DNA of 64,000 nt from an uncultured Candidatus Saccharibacteria bacterium (GTDB lineage: Bacteria; Patescibacteriota; Minisyncoccia; Phycocordibacterales; UBA918): NCBI GenBank assembly GCA_964350985.1, contig CAYGLK010000002.1, forward strand, positions 64,382 through 128,381, read 5' to 3'. Position numbers and translations under genes: made by a program. The notes beneath the pieces were generated by a model. That model was not told the origin of the DNA. It saw only the letters and a list, made by a program, of their open reading frames with translations, and did no database searches. Shown here piece after piece: positions 16,310 through 58,916 of this stretch (the stretch's first letter is position 1; each line of letters begins with the position of its first letter).

Positions 16310-16482
16310 AAAAAATACTTTAGCTGCTTTATTAATGGTTTGATTATATCATTTCTATAAATATTTGACTCAAATCTCTTAAAAAGTAGGGATGCCAAAC
16401 CTAAAACCAGGGCTTGGAATAAATGTCTTTTCCCTCTATAATAGGCGCTAACCACAAAAGTGGTGACAATTTGAACGAAGTG

Positions 16483-16634
16483 AATATATTGGAGGATTGG
16501 CTATGAAATCTAATTTGTTTTAGATTTCATCCGATCGTTCCCCAGAACGAATAATCGATGCTTTAGCGAGATTATAGGGAGGGTAACGAAGCCAATCCTA
16601 TCTAAGATCAGAGTGAATATATTGGAGGATTGGC
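16483..16634. repeat. 23-nt direct duplication (gtgaatatattggaggattggct) of the tRNA 5' end plus leader, with an inverted 10-nt copy (agccaatcct) in between
   Basis: Copies at 16483-16505 and 16612-16634; the inverted fragment sits around 16580. Confidence 0.55.
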
Positions 16635-16710
16635 TGAGTGGTTGAAAGCAGCAGTTTACTAAACTGCCGAACCTTAACAGGTTCCGAGAGTTCGAATCTC
16701 TCATCCTCCG
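16624..16710 (+). tRNA. Type II tRNA (Ser-class architecture) with apparent anticodon ACU (loop TTACTAA); unusual A34; no encoded CCA
   Basis: Acceptor GGAGGAT/ATCCTCC, D-loop AGTGGTTGAA, anticodon stem GCAGT/ACTGC, variable arm GAACCT-TAAC-AGGTTC, T-arm GAGAG-TTCGAAT-CTCTC. Confidence 0.65.
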
Positions 16711-16717
16711 CGAGTAC

Positions 16718-16748
16718 AAAAATAAGCACCTTTAGGTGCTTATTTTTG
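16718..16748 (+). terminator. Rho-independent terminator after the tRNA (aataagcacc-ttta-ggtgcttatt plus T-run)
   Basis: Perfect 10-bp stem with flanking A- and T-runs. Confidence 0.6.
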
Positions 16749-16750
16749 TT

Positions 16751-17150
16751 CGCGGAGGATGAAGAAAGCAAATAGTTTTGCTTTCTGTAGAGATTCGAAA
16801 GCCGCAGGCATGTCTGCAAGACAGCCGAGGCGGGGTCGAGAGTCCTTACTAGAATTAGAGCAAAGCGAATAATTATAGTTAGTAACTCGTGACCGAATTT
16901 CTATCTCTATACAACCCATTTAGGGTTGTTTTTATTTGTGCGAGCGAGAGGATGAGTAAGACGCCTGCGCGTCTTACGTAGAGATTCGAAAAGCGCAGCG
17001 ATGCCGGAGGCGAGCGAGTTGGGGTCGAGAACATTTAGTAGATTTGGAGTCGTAGACGAACAAATATACTTAATGATTCGTGACCGAATCTCCAACTCCA
17101 TACAACCCATTTAGGGTTGTTTTTATTTGTGCGAGCGGAGGATGAGAAAT
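16751..17150. repeat. tRNA-linked repeat array B: inverted copy of the tRNA 3' tail, then two tandem units of about 195 bp, each ending in the terminator-like module atacaacccatttagggttgtttttatttgtgcgagcg
   Basis: cgcggaggatga is the reverse complement of tcatcctccgcg (16701-16712). Units span about 16751-16946 and 16947-17137. Each has a hairpin, T-loop-like gtagagattcgaaagc, a GC-rich core and ccgaat + acceptor-like tail. Confidence 0.6.
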
Positions 17151-17163
17151 TTAAAAAAACAAT

Positions 17164-45071: not shown

Positions 45072-45464
45072 GGGGATGCTAGGCATCGACGGTTAGCCTA
45101 CCCATTATGTGCAGTGTCGAAATTGGAATCAATTCGTTAAAAGGTTCCATCTGTATTTGCAAACAAGCCAATACCAAGTCCTTACGCTAACGCGTTTGGA
45201 TTCGCTCCCGCTCTAGCGTAACCATTCGCCTAGACCCGGATCGATGCGATCGTACTAAACGCCTCATACAGTACGATTCGTAGAATAGCCACGAGGCTGT
45301 GGACTTAAGTGTCGTTGTCGCTTAAGTTCAAGATTGTCACAACTCGAGTAATTGTTGTTTTGTCTCTTCTATAGACAGTTACTTTAAATCAAAGGAGAAA
45401 CTACACACTGTAGATTCATGATGAGTACCTGATTCGGACGGGGTTTCGATTACCCCCATCTCCA
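45072..45464 (+). ncRNA. ssrA: tmRNA (ssrA), one-piece; tag ORF 45159-45221 encodes ANKPIPSPYANAFGFAPALA
   Basis: 5' end GGGGATGCTAGGCATCGACGG (tmRNA-like start); 3' tRNA-like domain GGGGT-TTCGATT-ACCCC plus acceptor CATCTCC pairing with GGGGATG. GCA resume codon in ...tttGCAAAC..., tag ends ALA-TAA. Adjacent to smpB. Confidence 0.7.
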
Positions 45465-45469
45465 CTCGC

Positions 45470-46301: not shown

Positions 46302-48167
46302 ATGAAATTCGAATCGTCTTCTTTTGAAGCAGAACCTTCTTTTGTTGTAACACCTCCACCAATTGACGCCTTACTAAAAATAAGTAGAGAAGGTTCATAC
46401 CTACCACATGAGGTTATGGAGAACGACGAAAGAATCAAACAGGCTGAACTTAGACTAAAAATTCTCGATCTCCTGCAGTCAGTACTCATCACTAATGACG
46501 AGACTAAAACAGACACGTTACCTGATGAACTATACGCTTCACTTACAGAACTACTTCATTCGGACAACCAAAATAATCGGATAATTCTTTACCTCCCGTT
46601 TGAGTGGGTTCCTAAAATTAACCAATCAGACAACGTCTCTGAAAATATCAACCAACAAGCAGAAGCCTTTTTGTCAGCTTATAAAACTGCATGGCTTTCC
46701 CTACTCACCTCATCTGAATTTAGAGCTGATTATGCCGATGGTGATATTCTTGAACCAGCATTTAGAAACGAAAAATTACCTAAGGTGGTAAAAGCGGCAC
46801 ACCTTATACCAGACCTTCTTGAAAGAGGTGTTTTGACTATGGATGAAATTATCACTCTATTTGAAGAGGCTGAGAATACCACCTTGCAAAACAGCATTGC
46901 AGACGGACTTTACGTCGCTCGCGAAAGAAATCTCGTCACAGACGAGCAGCTTGCCAAAATGAAGTTTTCTCAAAACACTTTTGTTTCCAATACCGCCAGA
47001 CTCATTGAGATTGAAATAAAACAACTTACTGAAACAAATAATGAAACAACAGAGCTAGTTCAAATTATTTCAGCGTACGAAGGTGAAATCACAGAAACAC
47101 AAAAAATAGCAGAAAATACGCCGATGACAGAATCACGTCGGGCGTGGCTACAAGCAGCTGACGCCGAAAAAATTATAGAAAAATACGCCTCAAAAATCAC
47201 CAACCGGACTGATCTTGATGCCCTGCTTGTTAGTAAGGAATTAACTCATATCACCCTTGGAATTCGTTCAATCGAATATCTATTGCGCCAAGAAAGCGAC
47301 AGCAAGACACAAGAATCTTTGACTGTAGAGTATCAATCCGTACTTCAAAATTATCTTGACCATGACGTCGAATCAGTCCGCGAGGCAGCCAAAAAGACCC
47401 TCTACCATTTACGCTCACTAGGACTTATCAATGATGCTTCACTAAACTCACAGGGACTTGAGCTGCCACAACTAAATGCCTCATCAGAAACCATTCTAAA
47501 TAAATTGAGTTCGGAAATTCAGCAATTTACCGAAGCTTCAAATCGTATAAAAAATAACGAGATACTTTCTAAGCATGTATACCCAGTTACAGTCTTTCTT
47601 GGTTCACGAATGAAAGGATATGCGTCAGAAGCAGCAGACTTTGATGTCGCCGTGTTTGTGAAGCCAGGTGCCTCTGAAAGCGATCGTCAGATAATCCAAA
47701 AAGAACTTACCACAGTATTTGCTGGCACACCGGCAAAAGGGAGCGCTATGGAATTTTGGCTTGAAGAAAAAAGTGACGGTAACTATACAGTTAAAAACTA
47801 TGAGGTGCTCGATGAGAAGCGTGGAGACAACACCCTAGTTCATCCAATTCTCGGCGCCTGGTGTGGTGAAGAAAAAGCAATTGCTGAACTTCAATCAAGA
47901 CTCATGCCACAATACCTTTTCTCCAAAGACACCGCTATTATGAATGTCGACGCCCGGTCAATTTGGCTAAACGAAATTGAACATACAACATTGAAATACA
48001 GACTAATGCATAAGGGTTATTCACGATTTTCGGCATCACAACTAGGAACACCCACACCTCACAATGATCTCATAGATAGTTCAAGTGCCTTCTATGATCC
48101 TGGCTACCGCCGACTAGCAACCGAACTATTTCTCAAGAAAGTTTTTCTGCCTCAACTATCTAAGTAG
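46302..48167 (+). CDS. Large protein with C-terminal minimal nucleotidyltransferase (pol-beta-like) domain; unknown alpha-helical N-terminal region
   Basis: 621 aa; NTase signature GSRMKGYASEAADFDVAVFV (hG[GS]..D.D) around residues 435-455. Confidence 0.55.
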   Translation: MKFESSSFEAEPSFVVTPPPIDALLKISREGSYLPHEVMENDERIKQAELRLKILDLLQSVLITNDETKTDTLPDELYASLTELLHSDNQNNRIILYLPFEWVPKINQSDNVSENINQQAEAFLSAYKTAWLSLLTSSEFRADYADGDILEPAFRNEKLPKVVKAAHLIPDLLERGVLTMDEIITLFEEAENTTLQNSIADGLYVARERNLVTDEQLAKMKFSQNTFVSNTARLIEIEIKQLTETNNETTELVQIISAYEGEITETQKIAENTPMTESRRAWLQAADAEKIIEKYASKITNRTDLDALLVSKELTHITLGIRSIEYLLRQESDSKTQESLTVEYQSVLQNYLDHDVESVREAAKKTLYHLRSLGLINDASLNSQGLELPQLNASSETILNKLSSEIQQFTEASNRIKNNEILSKHVYPVTVFLGSRMKGYASEAADFDVAVFVKPGASESDRQIIQKELTTVFAGTPAKGSAMEFWLEEKSDGNYTVKNYEVLDEKRGDNTLVHPILGAWCGEEKAIAELQSRLMPQYLFSKDTAIMNVDARSIWLNEIEHTTLKYRLMHKGYSRFSASQLGTPTPHNDLIDSSSAFYDPGYRRLATELFLKKVFLPQLSK

Positions 48168-48171
48168 CATA

Positions 48172-48207
48172 TAAAAAAACAAGCGGCCCCGGGGGACCGC
48201 TTGTTGA
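48172..48207. terminator. Bidirectional terminator (aaaaaaa-caagcggcccc-ggg-ggaccgcttg-tt) between convergent genes
   Basis: GC-rich hairpin with an A-run on the left, which is a T-run for the minus-strand operon. Confidence 0.55.
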
Positions 48208-48226
48208 ACAAGAGCAAAAAGAACGT

Positions 48227-49432
48227 TTACAGCTGACCTTTGTCGCGGGAACCGATACCGCCGCCCCGTCCAGACACACCCGCGGTATCGAGTCGATCCC
48301 ACGGAATCATCGCACCGAGCTGATAGAGAGCCACGATGTACTGCAACTCAGCCTGCCCGGCGGTGACGTTCTGGAACTCGATGATGCCGAGCGCAAATTG
48401 CTTCAGGTTCCGCTCGAGTCGCGGATAGTCAGAAGACACCGCCACTCCCAGCGTGCGCAACATCTGCTCGCGATTGGCCGCGCCCACCTGAGCGGGGAGC
48501 GACGGGTTCTCGAGCACCTTGCGGATCTGCTGGGCGTCATACGCCAGCGCCATAGCGACCGGCATTCCGGTACCAGCGAACACGTAGTTGATGTCATTCA
48601 CAACACCATCAGCCGCATCACGCAGTACCTCAGCGGGAGGCGGTTGCATCATCCCCGGAGGAACGATCCCGCCAGCCCCGCCAGCCAAAGCACTCAGCAT
48701 GCCGACCATGGCGGCCGGATTGCTCATCCCCTGTTGCCAGGCGTCGACCCACTGCTTCAGCTGCTGCTGATACGAGTTCAGCGAGCCCCAGAGACGATTG
48801 TTGATTCGGCCCAAGAGCGCGGCCTTGCGCGCCTGGGTGGCGAAGCGACCGTCGACGCCGGGCATGGCCGCAAAAATCTCGGCGTAGCTCCGGCGGGTCA
48901 GAAGGGCCTGCAACTGGTAGTAGTCGTCACCGACAGGTTCTTGGAGCGATTCCGCCTGACGCTCCATCGCCAGACCGATCTTTTCGGGAAGGTCGAAGAG
49001 GCCAAGACGAGCCGCCAGAGCAGCGCTCACGGTACCGGTGACAGTCTCCTTGTTGAACCTGAGAACGCCACCAACCTTGAGAGCATTGAGCCAGGCTTCG
49101 TCCGAAGGGACGGCCGGCAAGACATCGAAGGTCGCCGCACTCATCGCCGGTACCGCGGTTTCGCTAGCGGCAGGTGCCGGAGCGATTTCACGGAGGCCAG
49201 CAATGGCCTTGGCCAACTTCGCCTTGGGAGCGCCGTCGCCCACCGCCGCACCGATATCGGTGTCGGGAGTGAACTCGCGATCCTTGAGGAGACTGATTGC
49301 TTCATCGCCCGGTTCACCGACCAAGCCCTTCAGCGCAGCGGTGATTTCCTCGACGCTCTTTCCGAGCGCAGTGGCAAACGGGGTGATGTAAGCGACCCAA
49401 CCTTCAGGAAGGGTGATGGTTGTATCATTCAT
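48227..49432 (-). CDS. GC-rich hypothetical protein (401 aa), last gene of the GC-rich operon; no recognisable motif
   Basis: Long ORF with high-GC codon bias; Ala/Gly/Gln-rich low-complexity stretches. Confidence 0.55.
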   Translation of the reverse strand: MNDTTITLPEGWVAYITPFATALGKSVEEITAALKGLVGEPGDEAISLLKDREFTPDTDIGAAVGDGAPKAKLAKAIAGLREIAPAPAASETAVPAMSAATFDVLPAVPSDEAWLNALKVGGVLRFNKETVTGTVSAALAARLGLFDLPEKIGLAMERQAESLQEPVGDDYYQLQALLTRRSYAEIFAAMPGVDGRFATQARKAALLGRINNRLWGSLNSYQQQLKQWVDAWQQGMSNPAAMVGMLSALAGGAGGIVPPGMMQPPPAEVLRDAADGVVNDINYVFAGTGMPVAMALAYDAQQIRKVLENPSLPAQVGAANREQMLRTLGVAVSSDYPRLERNLKQFALGIIEFQNVTAGQAELQYIVALYQLGAMIPWDRLDTAGVSGRGGGIGSRDKGQL

Positions 49433-49476
49433 GACTTCTCTCCACGTAGATGCGGGTTTTGCCCGCGGGTTGTATT

Positions 49477-50865
49477 TCAGAAAATTGCTTTGTCGAGTTC
49501 GGTGGGACCGAACGCGAGCATGCGTAGTGGAATGCCGAGGTTTTCGGCGACCAGCTCCTTGGCTAGTGCAATGGCACCATCCTTAGAGCCACCGGGAATC
49601 ATGTGGCGAGTAATGACCGGCTTTGCGCTCATGAGCGCTTTACCAAGTCCTTCCTGATACCACAGTTGTTTGTCGTCTTCTCCTCTTCTAACGATTATTT
49701 CACCTTCCTTGGTGAAATAGTTTTGATCGAGCTCACCTTCGTAACGCTGGCAAACATCCCAAGCGCCGAAACGCAAAGGGGTGTCAAACCAAGTCATTGC
49801 CACGGCGTCAAAAGTGCCGCTGCCTCCACTCACCTCCTTGGCGTAGCGGAGCGCAACAAAGTCTAGCGGGCCAACACGCACCTTACCACGATAGCGATCG
49901 GGCTTGCCGACCTCTTCGGGAAGTAGCGTTTCGGCCATCTTCGCATCGTCAACCACAAGCGGCCCGGCCCCGTGTCTGATTTGATACGAGCGTGTCACAC
50001 CGATTTTTGCGACGTCACCATCCCATCCGTTCTCGCGGAGCAGACTCCAAGAGGTTATCTCAGGGAGTGTCCGGAGGCGGGTGGTATGAGGATGAAAGCC
50101 GTTAAAGCGATCGGTGAGAATACCGTGTGAACTTTCAACCACAATCACTCCGTCGCGAGATAGAACCTCACGACGCAAATAGTCATGATCGACAATGCGC
50201 ACACTCCTCCCAAATTCTTCAAACACATCGCCGACCCAATCAAGGAATCCGTCAGTGCGAATGAGATCAATCTGCTTCTGCACCTCTTCAACGTCGCCTG
50301 CCAGATAGCCTGCTTCCAAGACAAGTGCCAGGTCGCAGAGCTTTTGTGCATGTGCTGCACGAAGCTTTTCTCTGATACCTGGTTGCTTGAGATCCCTTGC
50401 TCTAATCGCCAGTTCCGGAAAGAGTTCGGCGTCGAGGAATGCTTCCCCAACACCAACACCTACCGTCCCTTTTGGGTTTTCCTTGCGAGCAAGTTCCTTC
50501 AGTCGTGACGCTATGCCATGAAAAGGCGTCGTCACGAGGGCATTCTCATCGACAGCGATAATAGACAACGGGTCGTAAATTCCATGTTCGTAGCGGAGCT
50601 CCTTAGCCTCGTTGAGGAAGCCAAGGGGCGAAACCACAAACCGGTCAGTCACGAACGTGCGGGCACCATTGAAGGTGCCACACCCGAACTGACTGAAGGC
50701 AAACTGTTCACCACGGGAGGTTGTTACGCCGTGATGTCCTTGTGCTCCCCCAACCTTGATGACGGTATGGGGTTTTCGGAGTGAGCACAACTTGTGCACC
50801 ACACCCCCTTTCCCCCCGTCACCACCACCAAGGTCGGTGACAGTATAGGCTTTCTTTTCGACCAT
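49477..50865 (-). CDS. Divergent adenylosuccinate synthetase (PurA/PurZ family) homologue
   Basis: 462 aa; GGGDGGKGG aligns with the GDEGKGK P-loop, GGAQGHHG with GGHNAGH, VVSP with VLSP, GTVGVGVGEAF with GTTGRGIGPAY, VESSHGILTD with FEGAQGTLLD, RHGAGP with RVGAGP. Several substrate-contact positions are substituted. Confidence 0.6.
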   Translation of the reverse strand: MVEKKAYTVTDLGGGDGGKGGVVHKLCSLRKPHTVIKVGGAQGHHGVTTSRGEQFAFSQFGCGTFNGARTFVTDRFVVSPLGFLNEAKELRYEHGIYDPLSIIAVDENALVTTPFHGIASRLKELARKENPKGTVGVGVGEAFLDAELFPELAIRARDLKQPGIREKLRAAHAQKLCDLALVLEAGYLAGDVEEVQKQIDLIRTDGFLDWVGDVFEEFGRSVRIVDHDYLRREVLSRDGVIVVESSHGILTDRFNGFHPHTTRLRTLPEITSWSLLRENGWDGDVAKIGVTRSYQIRHGAGPLVVDDAKMAETLLPEEVGKPDRYRGKVRVGPLDFVALRYAKEVSGGSGTFDAVAMTWFDTPLRFGAWDVCQRYEGELDQNYFTKEGEIIVRRGEDDKQLWYQEGLGKALMSAKPVITRHMIPGGSKDGAIALAKELVAENLGIPLRMLAFGPTELDKAIF

Positions 50866-50931
50866 AAAACCTCCCAGTCATTGTGACCGCAAGTGTGCAG
50901 GACTCTCGTCCTGCACACCTTTACGGCAAGT

Positions 50932-52050
50932 TCAGAGCCACGTTCCGCCAGCGGCGGCTTCGGGCTCACTTCCTTCTTCAGCGACCGGCCACAGGTCGTG
51001 CTTGTTGGCAAACACCGCTCCCTTCCCGGGAATCTTGTCGAAATTGGGGAAGAGCGTCTGTGCGCCAAGCGGGATGTGCGCCACTGCGCGCTGAATTTCA
51101 CGCGCCACAGTTGCACTACACCCAGTTTCCGTGAGGAAACCCACGACCGACTGCAGGTCGAGTACACCTTCCGTCAGACCGATGATGGCCGCTTCGACGT
51201 AAGCGATGTGCTTGGTGGTATCAATCACCACCACGTGTTCATCCCCGTAGTACCGCCGCCAGTAGTTGACACTGTCACGGCCCACCATGATGGCAAACGC
51301 ATGAGCCCGCTTCTTGAGCACGCTCATGATCTCATCAGTTCCAGACGGAAAATCCCGCTGGTCCATCGGAAAGCCATTGTCCGAGCACCGCTCGAACACC
51401 GTCTCGCCGAACACCCGGATGAGATGCCGCTTGTCGACACGTCCATGACTCGTGGCGTCCGTCGTCATGAAGTGGTACGGCAGCAGACCGTAGCGGTTGA
51501 TGAAGGGGTCGGTGAGGAACGCTGCCCCGAAGAGACCGTATTCCGGATCTTCTGGCTCGTCGCCACCCTTGCCTTCAGCAATCATGAGCACGAGTTGCTC
51601 AGCGATACGGACATCCATCTCCGCCTGCGTTCGGGCGAGGACGAACTTGTCCTCCACGTCACCGAACATGGCATTCATGATCTGCACATCGTACCGTCCG
51701 AGGAGCGGGTTTGCACCCGCCGTCAGGAGGTCGTACTGCTTCGGCAGCGAGTCGAAGATCAGGCGAATGTTGCTGGCCATGGAACCCGTCGTATCGAACA
51801 AGTTCTCGACGAGCATCGGTACCCCGACGCCGAGCCGGAACTTGCCGTTCACGAGTTCATCATAGCGAGGCCACGACTTCCGTACCAGGTCATACCCAGC
51901 CGGATCGACGAGGGCATGAAGTGCCCCCGTCGCTTCGTAGTGTTGCCGACCTGCGTGTGAGGCATCGCCACCTGCGGCAGCGACCTTGGCGGATTCTCCG
52001 GCGTAGGCCGAACGATCAAAGTGACGAAAGCTCTTGTCTGCACGACTCAT
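50932..52050 (-). CDS. vWA-like (MIDAS-type) domain protein, tentative
   Basis: 372 aa; beta-strand MLVENLF followed by DTTGSM (compare DxSGSM); overlaps the upstream gene by 4 bp (ATGA). Confidence 0.4.
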   Translation of the reverse strand: MSRADKSFRHFDRSAYAGESAKVAAAGGDASHAGRQHYEATGALHALVDPAGYDLVRKSWPRYDELVNGKFRLGVGVPMLVENLFDTTGSMASNIRLIFDSLPKQYDLLTAGANPLLGRYDVQIMNAMFGDVEDKFVLARTQAEMDVRIAEQLVLMIAEGKGGDEPEDPEYGLFGAAFLTDPFINRYGLLPYHFMTTDATSHGRVDKRHLIRVFGETVFERCSDNGFPMDQRDFPSGTDEIMSVLKKRAHAFAIMVGRDSVNYWRRYYGDEHVVVIDTTKHIAYVEAAIIGLTEGVLDLQSVVGFLTETGCSATVAREIQRAVAHIPLGAQTLFPNFDKIPGKGAVFANKHDLWPVAEEGSEPEAAAGGTWL

Positions 52051-52889
52051 GGTCTATCTCCTGTGGAAAGTGCGAGTGTTGTAAACGGATGAAAATTCCG
52101 TCCCCAGAGTGACTCTACCGTGTGGTAGAAAGCGGAATGAGCCTCACGAGCATCGCAAAATGCTCCGCGCGTAAGACTCATCAGAACTGCCTCATAGGCA
52201 GAATCATAGTCGGGGTCATCTTTCGGAAGCGTCATTGTTGCCAAGTCGCCTCCAAGTAACCACCAAACATTTCGTGCAGCCAGAGCGACTTCTTCGCGCC
52301 GGCTTTTGGCATCGAACCCTCTTTTCGCTTGCGACCAATCAAGCAGAGTCACCAGATGGTGCTCTTTCTCAATCAGGGTCGTTTCGTGATCAGCGAGGCT
52401 GCCAAAACCGACATCGCAGCTATGGACGAAGTCAAGGAACTTGAGGGTCTTCCCCAAGATCCAAACACTGGTCTTCATATCGACCCTGGACCGATCACGT
52501 TCACGAATGAAAGAGATAGGAACAAGGTCGATCAAACGGTCAACTGCTTGGAACCCAAGAACAACGACCCGGCGGCTTCCTTGATCTGGTACAACAAACG
52601 TTTCGACCACCTGCGGAAAGCAGATGGTGTAATTCAGCCTGTTGTGTCCCGGGAATTTCCGCTGATACTCAGCTTCGAGCCCCGCCGCGGCCTCGGTCAA
52701 CTCGCCGAGAAGAAAAGCTTCGCGGTCGAGAATCCCATTTTGGGCGGTCGAGACACCAATCTTCAGCATCAATTCGGAGTCGGGAGATTCTGGATTTTGC
52801 ACCCGAAAGTAGCGAAATCTGTCATTCTCTCCGACCAGGTTTTGTACCTGGTACGTACCTTTACGGCCACAAACATGTATGGAGGACAT
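52047..52889 (-). CDS. Hypothetical protein with weak protein-kinase/APH-like fold signals, first gene of the GC-rich operon
   Basis: 280 aa; HSCDVGFGSL...LLDWSQA resembles the catalytic-loop and DFG/IDW regions of APH/CotS-type kinases. Low confidence. Confidence 0.35.
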   Translation of the reverse strand: MSSIHVCGRKGTYQVQNLVGENDRFRYFRVQNPESPDSELMLKIGVSTAQNGILDREAFLLGELTEAAAGLEAEYQRKFPGHNRLNYTICFPQVVETFVVPDQGSRRVVVLGFQAVDRLIDLVPISFIRERDRSRVDMKTSVWILGKTLKFLDFVHSCDVGFGSLADHETTLIEKEHHLVTLLDWSQAKRGFDAKSRREEVALAARNVWWLLGGDLATMTLPKDDPDYDSAYEAVLMSLTRGAFCDAREAHSAFYHTVESLWGRNFHPFTTLALSTGDRP

Positions 52890-53393
52890 TGTGTTACCTC
52901 TCTTTCTTCAGTTGGTTTCTGTTGATCAGCTGTATGTCAAATAGCTTTTCCAACCCTTGCAGGCTAGCCACAATTTGGAATACGCAATTCAAACACTAAT
53001 TTGATTATCTGTCAATAATTTATGGGTTAGATTCAATGTTGGATTACAACACTGGTTAACCCATTAAATACTGACAAATACCCTTCCAGCCCATCAACAG
53101 CCACCGTAGTAATTCGATTCCGAACTTCTTTAGTTGGTTTTTAATATCCAGAGAGTTGCTGTTATATTTATATTCTTTTGTCAAAGAACCGGACACGTAC
53201 CTAAGATGGAACTACTTCATCCGCTAACGGTTTCAAACCTTCTTAGGTACTTTGTGTGTATCTGACACTAAGATACACCTGTTATGTGTTAGTGTCAACG
53301 CTACACTAAATACGATACAATTATTAATTAGCGTCAAACCTACACACCTGACAGACAGCAAAAGAGCGGCCTTACGGCCGCTCTTCCCTCCTC

Positions 53394-55801: not shown

Positions 55802-55877
55802 AGAGTCATACTACAGAATCTTCAGTTTTATTGTCTCTGTCTCTTTTAACTGTAGAGACGGGTTATAATTACTGAAT

Positions 55878-56354
55878 ATGAATAACATCAAATTTACCCA
55901 CGAACTGATTAAGGGAAAGATTGCAGAAATTATCTTTGAACAGATGATACACAACACTAAAGGCTATACCGTATTAGAATTCGGCTACGAAAAAGTAGTC
56001 CATCAACTGGCCAAAGCCCCTAAGAGCGAAGACGCTAAAGCAATGATAGAAATTGTCCGCAAAGCCCCTGACTACGCCATAGTAAATGAAGACACTCACA
56101 ATGTGACCTTAGTTGAAATCAAATACATGGCTAAAAGAACTAATGGTAAAGTAAACGCTATTGCCAAAGAGATAGAAAAGTCTTGGCGACACGCTGCCCT
56201 CTTCATTGCTACACCAGATGGTTTTTTCTTTGATCAAGTAGACACTATCATCACAAACAAAGGTGCTATCAAACCCTTCCATCATGGCAAAATCCAACCA
56301 AAGCTTATAGATCAGTATCTAGCGATGTTAAATGAATTTATTGTGGTGAAGTAA
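55878..56354 (+). CDS. Hypothetical protein with possible PD-(D/E)xK nuclease-fold signature
   Basis: 158 aa; ...APDYAIV...VTLVEIKYM... matches the PD..(D/E)xK arrangement. Terminator aaaaccgcc-ttag-gcggtttt at 56376-56399. Confidence 0.4.
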   Translation: MNNIKFTHELIKGKIAEIIFEQMIHNTKGYTVLEFGYEKVVHQLAKAPKSEDAKAMIEIVRKAPDYAIVNEDTHNVTLVEIKYMAKRTNGKVNAIAKEIEKSWRHAALFIATPDGFFFDQVDTIITNKGAIKPFHHGKIQPKLIDQYLAMLNEFIVVK

Positions 56355-56451
56355 CAAAACGAAAGTAAAGCAAAGTAAAACCGCCTTAGGCGGTTTTACT
56401 TGTTCTAGAATCACAACACATAATCTTCAATTTTATTGTCTCTGTCTCTTT

Positions 56452-56895
56452 TTATATTTGGGAAGGCGATAGAATTACAATTTCATTACCAACAATTTTT
56501 TCAAGTCGTTTTCTTAGTCCTTCGTCACCAGAATAGATGGTGTGTTTTTCAGCATACTCTGCGAATGGTAGTTCTAAAGACCAAAATGCGCCCTTACTTT
56601 CAATCAGTGTTTTTGCTAGCGCAAGGAGCGAAACGTCACCCATACCTCGCATAGTATAAATTGATTTACCACCAACACTGTTTAAAATAAAATGATAATT
56701 CTTTAAGTAAAGCGCTTTCTGAAATGACTCCTCTTCAAAAAGATCAATTAAATATGTTAAAGGTGCAGCTTTATTCAACGCAATTTCGAGAGTGTATATT
56801 TCCTCAAGAATATCAGGCGTAACGAAAAAGTTTTCATCAATGATAATATTATTTTTCATAACAAAATTTAGCGCTGACGTATCAAGAATTTTCAT
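56452..56895 (-). CDS. PIN-domain protein (VapC-like nuclease fold)
   Basis: 147 aa starting MKILDTSAL (PIN N-terminal Asp motif); overlaps the upstream gene by 4 bp. Confidence 0.55.
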   Translation of the reverse strand: MKILDTSALNFVMKNNIIIDENFFVTPDILEEIYTLEIALNKAAPLTYLIDLFEEESFQKALYLKNYHFILNSVGGKSIYTMRGMGDVSLLALAKTLIESKGAFWSLELPFAEYAEKHTIYSGDEGLRKRLEKIVGNEIVILSPSQI

Positions 56896-58085
56896 AGGCT
56901 GTTTGCCTTACAGTAGGATTTGAAATCTTTATGCCGAGGACGCCCAAACAAAAGATACTGTGCCGGAACATTAGTAATTCCTTTTACTCGCAAACTGCGG
57001 TTAATTGATTCAGTTGAAATGCTTCCGCAAAATTTATTTGCTGCGTTTACCGGTGTGATTCTTTTCATTGGTTTGCTCGGCATTGATTTCTTTACGTATT
57101 TTGGTGGAAGCAAAGCTTTATAAACTGACAGACTTATTATTTTCCGACGAAGCAGGGTTGTTAAGACAGCAGTTGGCGTAAGATTGTAATCGTTTGCCAA
57201 GTTGTCTCTTGTTGTTGTGGTAACTATCTTGTCTCGTAAAGCTTCAGTAACTGAGAAGGGTAATAAGAAAGCTGTGACGATGTCGTGTAAATTTTTAACC
57301 CCGCCTTTCCTTTTAAGCATACTGGCACTGTGATGGCCTTCAATATAAAAGTCATACTGATCAAGACCAATACACGCAAGAAGGTAAATGAGCGTATAAA
57401 TTCTTCTCCCAGCTACATCATCAGGATTTATTTCGTCGGGTAGAAAAATATAAGGAACTTTTTCACTTTGTAAAACGAAACCGCTGGTATTTTTATAAAC
57501 AGTAATAAGGGTGGGGCTTTCCGGTAAAACTCCACCCTTAAGTACTCCCCTCGAGATATTTATGTTCTTTTTAGTGATTTGCGAAATAAGATATTCGAGC
57601 GCGTCTTCTTTATTTTTAGATCTAAATTTTTTAATATCAATTTCAAAGTGTTTGAGAGTGAAGTTAACTTGATCTATAAGAGTTCTTCCTTTGAAAGAAG
57701 AAACAAAGGCATTGTTGGTGTAATAGGAGTCGCTTTCGACAAAAGCCTGCAGTCGAATAAGTCTATCTATGATTCGTTTTGAAGTAACATTGCCTGAACC
57801 TTTACGTTTAGAAAAGCTGGTATTTTTAAACTTGTCCTTTCTCTGCAACTCAATAGAGTCAAGTTCTTTTTTTAAGTTTCCAATATTTAAAAAGAATATT
57901 TGCCAAGGGAGACAAATTGATTCACATTCACCTAATATAACGCTGTAACTGATATGACCAGCATCACGAGCGTCCCTAAGTAGAGGTCTGTCGAAAAGAC
58001 GTTCCTCGGGATATAACCGTAGAATCAAATCAAATACGTCGTCACTGATTTCGACCGCGTTATCTCGGCCAATTTTTACCCACAT
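56892..58085 (-). CDS. Hypothetical 397-aa protein translationally coupled to the PIN gene
   Basis: ATGA-type 4-bp overlap with the PIN gene; no catalytic motif recognised (no HExxH, no YxDD). Confidence 0.5.
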   Translation of the reverse strand: MWVKIGRDNAVEISDDVFDLILRLYPEERLFDRPLLRDARDAGHISYSVILGECESICLPWQIFFLNIGNLKKELDSIELQRKDKFKNTSFSKRKGSGNVTSKRIIDRLIRLQAFVESDSYYTNNAFVSSFKGRTLIDQVNFTLKHFEIDIKKFRSKNKEDALEYLISQITKKNINISRGVLKGGVLPESPTLITVYKNTSGFVLQSEKVPYIFLPDEINPDDVAGRRIYTLIYLLACIGLDQYDFYIEGHHSASMLKRKGGVKNLHDIVTAFLLPFSVTEALRDKIVTTTTRDNLANDYNLTPTAVLTTLLRRKIISLSVYKALLPPKYVKKSMPSKPMKRITPVNAANKFCGSISTESINRSLRVKGITNVPAQYLLFGRPRHKDFKSYCKANSL

Positions 58086-58289
58086 GGACCCAATTATGCG
58101 CCTCGTTTACACAATCGCAAGAGCTGTGTAATAAAGAGAAGATAAAATCTGGCAAAACAAACCAGAGTTGTGACTTTTAGTCGTATGACAGGTCAGATTT
58201 GCTATTAAAGCTCGGGCGCGCAGAAGTCCTCTCGCAAGGGAATGGACGACATTGTAATAAATTTTGTATAATACCTTCAAAAGGCCTTT

Positions 58290-58618
58290 GAAACACTAGC
58301 GGGAGATTTAGAGTGCCCATTTCTGTAGTCTAGGGGATCAACTCACTTCCCCCCTAGTCAGCGTTCATGTTGAGCGTTGACCCAGGGCGCGGAGAGGTGT
58401 GCCCCGGATTATTAGCGTAAGCAAACCAACCTATGACGAAAGTCAAAACAGGCGGCACCGCCTCGAAGTCAGGGCAATACCGTGTTTCGGAATCGAAATA
58501 AGAGATTACTCTGTCCAAAGGTGACCGAGTTCCTCCATACGGAGGCAAAGCGGTAACCTTTGTGCTAGTCGATAAGACCAAGCATAAGAAGTAATTGTCG
58601 TTTTCCCGCTAGTGTTTC
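58290..58618. ncRNA. 329-nt GC-rich structured element closed by a perfect 15-bp terminal inverted repeat (gaaacactagcggga / tcccgctagtgtttc); candidate ncRNA, strand undetermined
   Basis: About 55% GC against AT-rich flanks; internal hairpins CUAGGGG..CCCCCUAG and ggcggcaccgcc; no plausible ORF. Confidence 0.35.
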
Positions 58619-58625
58619 AGATGAT

Positions 58626-58916
58626 TTATTTTATAAGTAGGCTGACTATTGCAACCAACACACCCACTGAGGCCGCTATACCACCAACCCATGTTGCTGT
58701 GCGAATGGACTTTGTAAGTTGATCAGATGACTTGGCGGCGCTATCAAGCATATCAGCAAGTCTGTTGATGGCTTGATGGGGTGGCGCACCCGGAATATGC
58801 TTTTCGTGATGAAACCAAACCATTTTCCATAGGAATTTATCAACCTTATCTTCATAGGTCATATTTGGCCATTCTTCTCGCAATCTGCTTATTTCATCGT
58901 TTTCTCTGTTGAACAT
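58626..58916 (-). CDS. Small protein with C-terminal TM anchor, immediately downstream of the R-M gene
   Basis: 96 aa; start overlaps or abuts the stop of the 988-aa gene. Confidence 0.4.
   Translation of the reverse strand: MFNRENDEISRLREEWPNMTYEDKVDKFLWKMVWFHHEKHIPGAPPHQAINRLADMLDSAAKSSDQLTKSIRTATWVGGIAASVGVLVAIVSLLIK

Follow-up and report, generated by a model that had tools for sequence, protein, structure and literature searches.

An element of some 350 nt, found in the 64,000-nucleotide stretch of DNA analysed here (hereafter the window), is probably one plus-strand transcription unit, in which an mRNA folded over its whole length carries the coding sequence of a 53-residue YjzC-like protein. 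The unit would be made up of a conserved promoter, a structured leader of about 150 nt, a small open reading frame (ORF), and a 3' tail whose pairing with the very start of the RNA gives a helix of 17-26 bp. The predicted protein adds a member to a family that is known but uncharacterised, and the RNA architecture is an uncatalogued variant of known mRNAs with 5'-3' pairing.

A small conserved gene with a broken copy in the window

The unit is composed of the following features, given by their positions in the window.

58243 to 58272, plus strand: putative promoter, with a -35 box TGGACG, an 18-nt spacer and a -10 box TATAAT (10 of 12 matches in a consensus scan)
58281 to 58306, plus strand: 5' arm of the closing helix (core 58290-58306, extension 58281-58289), pairing with 58602-58627
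58307 to 58432, plus strand: structured part of the leader region of about 150 nt, with a long hairpin, a short helix and a linker, and no codon periodicity
58433 to 58594, plus strand: 53-codon ORF for a small basic YjzC-like protein, with the normal stop at 58592-58594 and a TAA at codon 23
58602 to 58627, plus strand: 3' arm of the closing helix, 8 nt beyond the stop codon of the ORF and followed by UUUAUUUU

An earlier note on this DNA described the element as devoid of any ORF, which proved wrong in substance, as a conserved 53-codon frame opens on the plus strand at 58433 and is interrupted by a TAA. Indeed, the ORF escaped notice because the window copy carries this in-frame TAA at codon 23 (58499-58501), where relatives have CAT, TAT or CAA. 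The uneven spread of variable positions over the three phases (22/45/25) led to the frame at ATG 58433, and the model of a stand-alone non-coding RNA was dropped once this bias had exposed the conserved ORF. Counted by codon position, variable sites are distributed 9/7/26 inside the ORF (7/3/22 among intact copies) vs. 15/17/19 outside. From its ATG, the frame translates as MTKVKTGGTASKSGQYRVSGTK.EITLSKGDRVPPYGG...FVLVDKTKHKK.

The ORF is intact in eight of the ten related copies and broken in the window and in the copy named L003. Among the close copies, those of L010, L025, L001, and L035 are intact, and L003 is frameshifted by an 8-nt deletion. In the window copy, the bias toward third positions persists in the differences located 3' of the TAA, so that the nonsense change is recent and has not been long tolerated. 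As far as sequence comparison goes, this shows a recent nonsense mutation, CAA to TAA at codon 23, and a pseudogenised gene; the TAA could also be an assembly or consensus error in the metagenome-assembled genome.

A profile search retrieved at least 127 protein clusters of 52-58 residues, with 61-89% identity, across Patescibacteria. Sixty-three of 90 family members match the YjzC family (PF14168; E<=0.01, best value 5.6e-06) and no other family, and about a dozen have a precomputed PF14168 assignment. The four intact peptides of the clade reach 13.7-16.8 bits against the same family (E 0.009-0.08), under the gathering score of 25 bits; the PF14168 membership of the clade rests on the wider family. 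YjzC proteins are small single-domain proteins of about 55-70 residues, and the members retrieved here have 52-58. Common to the YjzC-like family are a G-x-Y pattern near the N-terminus and a KGD-x-x-PP pattern in the middle of the protein. The peptide, with 12 lysines and arginines for 4 aspartates and glutamates, is hydrophilic and basic, and has no transmembrane or hydrophobic segment. Its AlphaFold model is a compact four-stranded beta fold predicted with confidence (pLDDT 86.8), for which structure comparison returned no match below E = 1 and no solved relative. YjzC is essentially uncharacterised in the searchable literature, where no function of the family was found.

A helix joining the two ends of a folded RNA

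The inverted repeat on which the element had been delimited was confirmed at its exact positions. The 15-mers at 58290-58304 and 58604-58618 are perfectly complementary, and the perfect pairing in fact covers 16 bp (58289-58304 with 58604-58619). When G.U pairs and two mismatches are allowed, the helix extends to 58281-58306 with 58602-58627, about 25 bp. The window has no other long-range perfect inverted repeat of at least 15 bp, the remaining perfect repeats being short-loop hairpins; first-order Markov simulations yielded 0.08 such pairs per window on average, and 12 of 200 runs contained one or more. The GC content of the element is 49.8%, and not 55% as had been claimed, for 37.8% in the flanks.

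Covariation and G.U asymmetry also bear out the proposal that the repeat forms a helix closing the core. Within the close clade, a compensatory change from C-G to U-A is found at 58294/58614. In ten copies whose proteins are 67-100% identical, 14 positions of the closing helix have double-sided changes, in a set where six sequences are closely related and the helix register of the distant copies was set by hand. All ten minimum-energy folds have the closing helix on the outside, and sequence conservation stops about 10-14 nt beyond this helix. No canonical terminator lies 3' of the helix in the window; at the L064 locus, a separate terminator is located 45 nt downstream. Two YjzC-like relatives on viral contigs differ from this organization in having an ordinary Shine-Dalgarno (SD) leader and no closing helix.

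The interior is hairpin-rich, as first described, and folds far better than shuffled sequences (z = -9.9 for the plus strand and -7.7 for the minus strand). In the six distinct close copies, 96.1-97.1% of the pair cells are standard pairs, vs. 40-48% with slid partners, and 7-8 pairs change on both sides, a value reached by 2 of 500 shuffles. G.U cells number 67 for 4 A.C cells, and pairing drops to 85.5% when these pairs are taken from the other strand; the energy of the plus strand is the lower one in all six close copies, in which many loops are invariant. The predicted RNA fold is thus under selection, and it lies on the plus strand. Hairpins internal to the ORF covary as well, with three pair types at 58525/58553, and these substitution patterns show the protein frame and the predicted RNA pairings to be both under selection within the same 350 nt. 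The earlier reading as a structured RNA therefore stands on covariation and G.U asymmetry, but its other half, a regulatory or guide-like non-coding RNA, gives way to the conserved YjzC-like frame. Elements and relatives were searched for with nhmmer profiles in place of a full covariance model.

Promoter, leader, and start region

The -10 box is kept in all six close copies, and the sequence further upstream is not. Transcription initiated from this predicted promoter would start a few nucleotides before the closing helix. The leader contains a long irregular hairpin (about 58333-58405), the 5' strand of which is C-rich and the 3' strand G-rich, and a short helix pairing 58323-58325 with 58413-58415. 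An A/C-rich and largely unpaired linker (58416-58432) then precedes the AUG. Pairs 58325/58413 and 58362/58376 covary. A long C-rich/G-rich leader hairpin recurs with a different sequence, apical part included, at the distant loci L064, L067, and L071. A leader folded as three separate hairpins with a kissing loop was also considered; on the six close copies it performs no better than a single nested long hairpin, which is the fold preferred by the distant copies.

Positions -20 to -1 have predicted probabilities of being unpaired of 0.4-0.8, with essentially the same values when the 3' arm is removed. Since the start region is predicted to be open with or without the 3' arm, the closing helix would not mask the start codon, and sequestration of the start site of the hok/aapA1 type finds no support in these accessibility calculations. 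No SD motif precedes the small ORF, which is normal here because only 5 of 36 long ORFs in the window have an upstream GGAG/GAGG motif, four of the five in a foreign GC-rich block. Many native genes of the window have a TATAAT-like box 6-12 nt before their ATG. These features suggest that leaderless or SD-independent translation may be widespread in this organism.

The GC-rich block (48000-53000) has 54-59% GC in a genome of about 39% GC, and its genes have Shine-Dalgarno motifs, unlike the rest. It is located between the tmRNA gene (45072-45467) and the element, and carries a PurZ-like gene (49477-50865; PHROG 1211, "2-aminooxy adenylosuccinate synthetase", E 4.8e-40) together with a kinase-like gene. 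It looks like foreign, possibly phage-derived DNA.

A constant unit among exchanged defence genes

The neighbourhood of the element in the window comprises the following genes.

56452 to 58085, minus strand: conserved pair of genes for 397-aa and 147-aa proteins, divergent from the element
56892 to 58085, minus strand: the 397-aa gene, from a large Patescibacteria family with no strong domain
56452 to 56895, minus strand: the 147-aa gene, PIN-like by motif only
58626 to 58916, minus strand: gene converging on the element, for a 96-aa tail-anchored membrane protein with a C-terminal transmembrane helix
58919 to 61885, minus strand: gene for a type IIG R-M enzyme (Pfam and PADLOC)

The element does lie among defence genes, and the type IIG R-M gene and small membrane protein noted beside it were both recovered, the former by Pfam and PADLOC and the latter by its transmembrane helix. 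The 96-aa gene is real, as third codon positions account for 29 of 34 differences. Only the window and the L025 population have this gene next to the element; its more remote homologues are found at loci without the element, and an obligate partnership with this gene was rejected on that ground. On the other side, the "397-aa/PIN pair" of the earlier note holds as a conserved gene pair, but the PIN assignment of the 147-aa protein found no HMM or PDB support and relies on motif only: an ILDTSA stretch at the N-terminus and invariant acidic residues, which would suit a PIN-like fold. In the 397-aa family, 6 of 35 members have weak Peptidase_M78 matches (M78/ImmA-like). Pfam, PADLOC, and NCBIfam revealed no reverse transcriptase, TnpB or IscB domain in the 397-aa neighbour; a retron, a DRT or an omega-RNA was accordingly discarded.

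Homologues of the 397-aa protein at about 48% identity are encoded inside type I R-M operons, with no upstream room for the element. In L005-L009, from less closely related Patescibacteria (for example, L005:6001-7634), the 397-aa/~150-aa pair is located between hsdS and hsdR of such operons; there it often lies beside a UvrD-like helicase and forms a recurrent accessory module. The 397-aa gene occurs without the element and the element without the gene, which excludes an obligate partnership. Co-occurrence with the 397-aa/PIN pair in other genomes is not consistent, the element also being found with wholly different neighbours. Nor does it consistently accompany any one protein family, which goes against an RNA acting as guide or partner for the defence genes beside it.

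In close relatives, the element is retained at 81-91% nucleotide identity and its flanks change. The 3' neighbour differs in every lineage, and at least five different defence cargoes occupy this position.

Window: type IIG R-M
L025/L044: HpaII endonuclease, RadC-C5 methylase, large serine recombinase
L001: DUF2130, GmrSD, EcoRI methylase
L010: Eco57I-type methylase, PLD-SNF2 helicase
L035: AIPR

On the 5' side, relatives have either the 397-aa pair, unrelated genes, or a second element ("element 2"), which replaces the absent 397-aa/147-aa pair in L010 and L035. The same architecture is found at loci whose proteins are about 85% (L064), 75% (L067/L069), and 67% (L071) identical. An ORF-free leader of 230-260 nt precedes the gene at these distant loci, and a helix of 11-26 bp has its 5' arm 137-166 nt before the ATG and its 3' arm 11-18 nt after the stop. 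Their neighbours are again genes for defence and recombinases, in three sets: OLD/TOPRIM, a serine recombinase and LlaMI R-M; GmrSD or AlwI, HigB and an M78 peptidase; and a ResIII endonuclease. The opposite side is occupied in L067 by the core genes HU and YmdB. Because the flanks differ in every genome, and mostly encode defence functions, the link to defence genes is positional. With its sequence retained and both flanks swapped, the unit corresponds to a fixed landmark at the edge of a variable island rather than to the partner of one system. This association with a hotspot is based on nine independent contexts.

Element 2 is GC-rich (55-65%), about 350-420 nt long, and has no convincing conserved ORF (L010:56-483; L035:219-601; L001:6631-7080; partial in L054:3500-3576). 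It is closed by a perfect inverted repeat of its own, of 17-26 bp (GGCCATTTCCGCTAGGG...). It shows compensatory changes, has no Rfam match and is absent from the window. In L010 and L035, it is located 60-100 nt upstream of the main element; in L001 and L054, gene cassettes are inserted between the two.

Large serine recombinases (Resolvase/Recombinase/Zn_ribbon_recom) are encoded at L044:1-1542 and L064:446-1726, at the outer end of R-M cassettes adjoining the small gene. Their position gives a hint of the way in which the cassettes are mobilised. In L064:4162-4700, the small gene is followed by a canonical terminator, by a tRNA gene in the opposite orientation, and by a direct repeat of about 34 nt of part of that tRNA; this is the typical trace left by integration of an element at a tRNA gene.

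Other repeats were seen in the window itself. At 16479-17151, a tRNA-Ser gene with the unusual anticodon ACT (16624-16711) lies within direct repeats spaced by 191 nt, and a 24-nt exact duplicate of the 5' flank and start of this tRNA is present; the repeats look like duplicated pieces of the tRNA flank. A 46-nt direct repeat (87% identical; 55802-55847 and 56407-56452) brackets a 158-aa ORF (55878-56354), and one of its copies abuts the stop codon of the 147-aa gene.

Alternative interpretations

A size of about 330-350 nt and a closing helix recall RNase P RNA, and RNase P RNAs of the CPR may fall below Rfam cut-offs (Lui et al., PMC8172020), so that model searches could have missed a housekeeping RNA, be it RNase P, SRP or 6S, of divergent sequence. 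In the window, Rfam identified a tmRNA and three tRNAs, all outside the element. With Rfam 15, the element had no match at gathering score, nor at E<=10 when 901 nt or the element alone were searched; noise-level scores were those of Fibro-purF (15.6 bits) and rpfG (12.1 bits). RNase P (RF00010/RF00011), SRP, and 6S models gave no match at E<=10 (about 12 bits) on the element alone. The lack of RNase P or SRP signatures reported at the outset thus held, and assignment to a known housekeeping family found no basis in Rfam. Given the behaviour of the CPR RNAs, the motifs that define RNase P, with a P4 helix formed by CR-I and CR-V, were also looked for directly. GAAAGUC occurs once, in a 4-bp GNRA hairpin that includes the start codon, and the only SRP-like GGAA loop, in hairpin PF, is deleted in L003. 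Since the element also encodes a protein, a housekeeping RNA is hardly credible, and RNase P identity was rejected on motif and model grounds. The RNase P RNA of the genome itself was not found in the ORF-poor 35.4-37.3 kb stretch of the window. A miniature mobile element (MITE), or a DNA-level recombination site defining the island border, would account for the terminal inverted repeats, for a length of about 330 nt without a long ORF in the window copy, for the variability of both flanks, and for the large serine recombinases nearby in L044 and L064. However, the element is single-copy in the 64-kb window and in every contig, and target-site duplications gave no match at any length from 2 to 11 nt. 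Unlike MITEs, it has a conserved promoter of its own, a coding frame, and compensatory substitutions of the RNA type with strand-specific G.U pairs, all of which denote an expressed gene and make a mobile or recombination element very improbable. Phage and plasmid collections contained no similar DNA.

Other readings accept the folded transcript and assign it a different role. The end-to-end fold might be a distinct, uncatalogued RNA device of Patescibacteria (a stalk or insulator, or a dual-function RNA), a capsule marking, and perhaps helping to create, hotspots of defence exchange, sometimes together with element 2; this is possible but doubtful. Less probable still is a dual-function or mainly non-coding RNA (an RNP scaffold or a regulator) in which the small ORF would be secondary or dispensable. 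Such an RNA would agree with the covariation of pairings inside the ORF (helices PF and PH), with the many invariant loops, and with the two copies out of ten that have a broken ORF and an intact fold. Both lesions are indeed structure-neutral, as the C to U change leaves a G.U pair in place of G-C, and only the tip of a hairpin is lost through the 8-nt deletion. It fits poorly, however, with the strong third-position bias and a peptide highly conserved across a broad family; the codon bias past the stop in the window points to recent loss instead of long-term tolerance, and no Rfam family matches. The loss of the ORF in two of ten copies and the mobile, defence-rich location next to serine recombinases would also suit a module resembling type I toxin-antitoxin systems, whose toxic small protein, encoded by an mRNA kept inert by 5'-3' pairing, would stabilise defence islands. 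In Helicobacter pylori, the full-length aapA1 mRNA is stable and poorly translated; in mRNAs of the aapA1/hok type, the 5'-3' interaction hides the ribosome-binding site, and the compactness of type I toxin mRNAs, with few accessible single strands, explains their stability (PMC5416894). As in hok and aapA1, the small ORF is enclosed by a long 5'-3' interaction, in a compact and highly paired transcript whose ends meet in a long helix. In contrast with them, the start region is predicted to be open and unaffected by the 3' arm, and there is no sign of an antisense RNA. On the minus strand, a single TANNNT box (-10-like) is conserved; it lies opposite invariant Glu-Ile-Thr codons, which explain its conservation. 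With a basic, soluble peptide without transmembrane segment, conserved far beyond typical toxins, and no independent antisense promoter visible, a type I toxin role is unlikely, and somewhat more so than a dual-function RNA.

Possible role of the closing helix

Within the preferred reading, that of a YjzC-like gene carried by an end-to-end folded mRNA, the closing helix would most likely seal both ends of the message against exonucleases, or provide a double-stranded stalk for processing by an RNase III type of cleavage, or both. RNase III processing stalks bracket rRNAs and some phage or bacterial mRNAs. The helix resembles them in that it flanks a functional RNA with about 20-26 bp, a likeness of helix length and position only. 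Such a stalk could free a defined molecule from variable surrounding transcription and would trim the message to one constant form regardless of neighbouring transcription. In the leader, the long hairpin is a candidate site for regulation in cis or for protein binding.

Concluding remarks

For genome annotation, this case illustrates that one nonsense codon can disguise a real small-protein gene as a non-coding element. For RNA biology, it offers a testable case for an effect of mRNA-end pairing on stability or processing. More generally, Patescibacteria possess a widespread and conserved small protein whose gene has an unusual whole-transcript structure, in a host genome that otherwise appears to produce mostly SD-less and often leaderless messages. 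Finally, this small gene recurs as a landmark next to defence cassettes that are rapidly exchanged, and may provide an anchor for locating defence islands in these little-understood bacteria.
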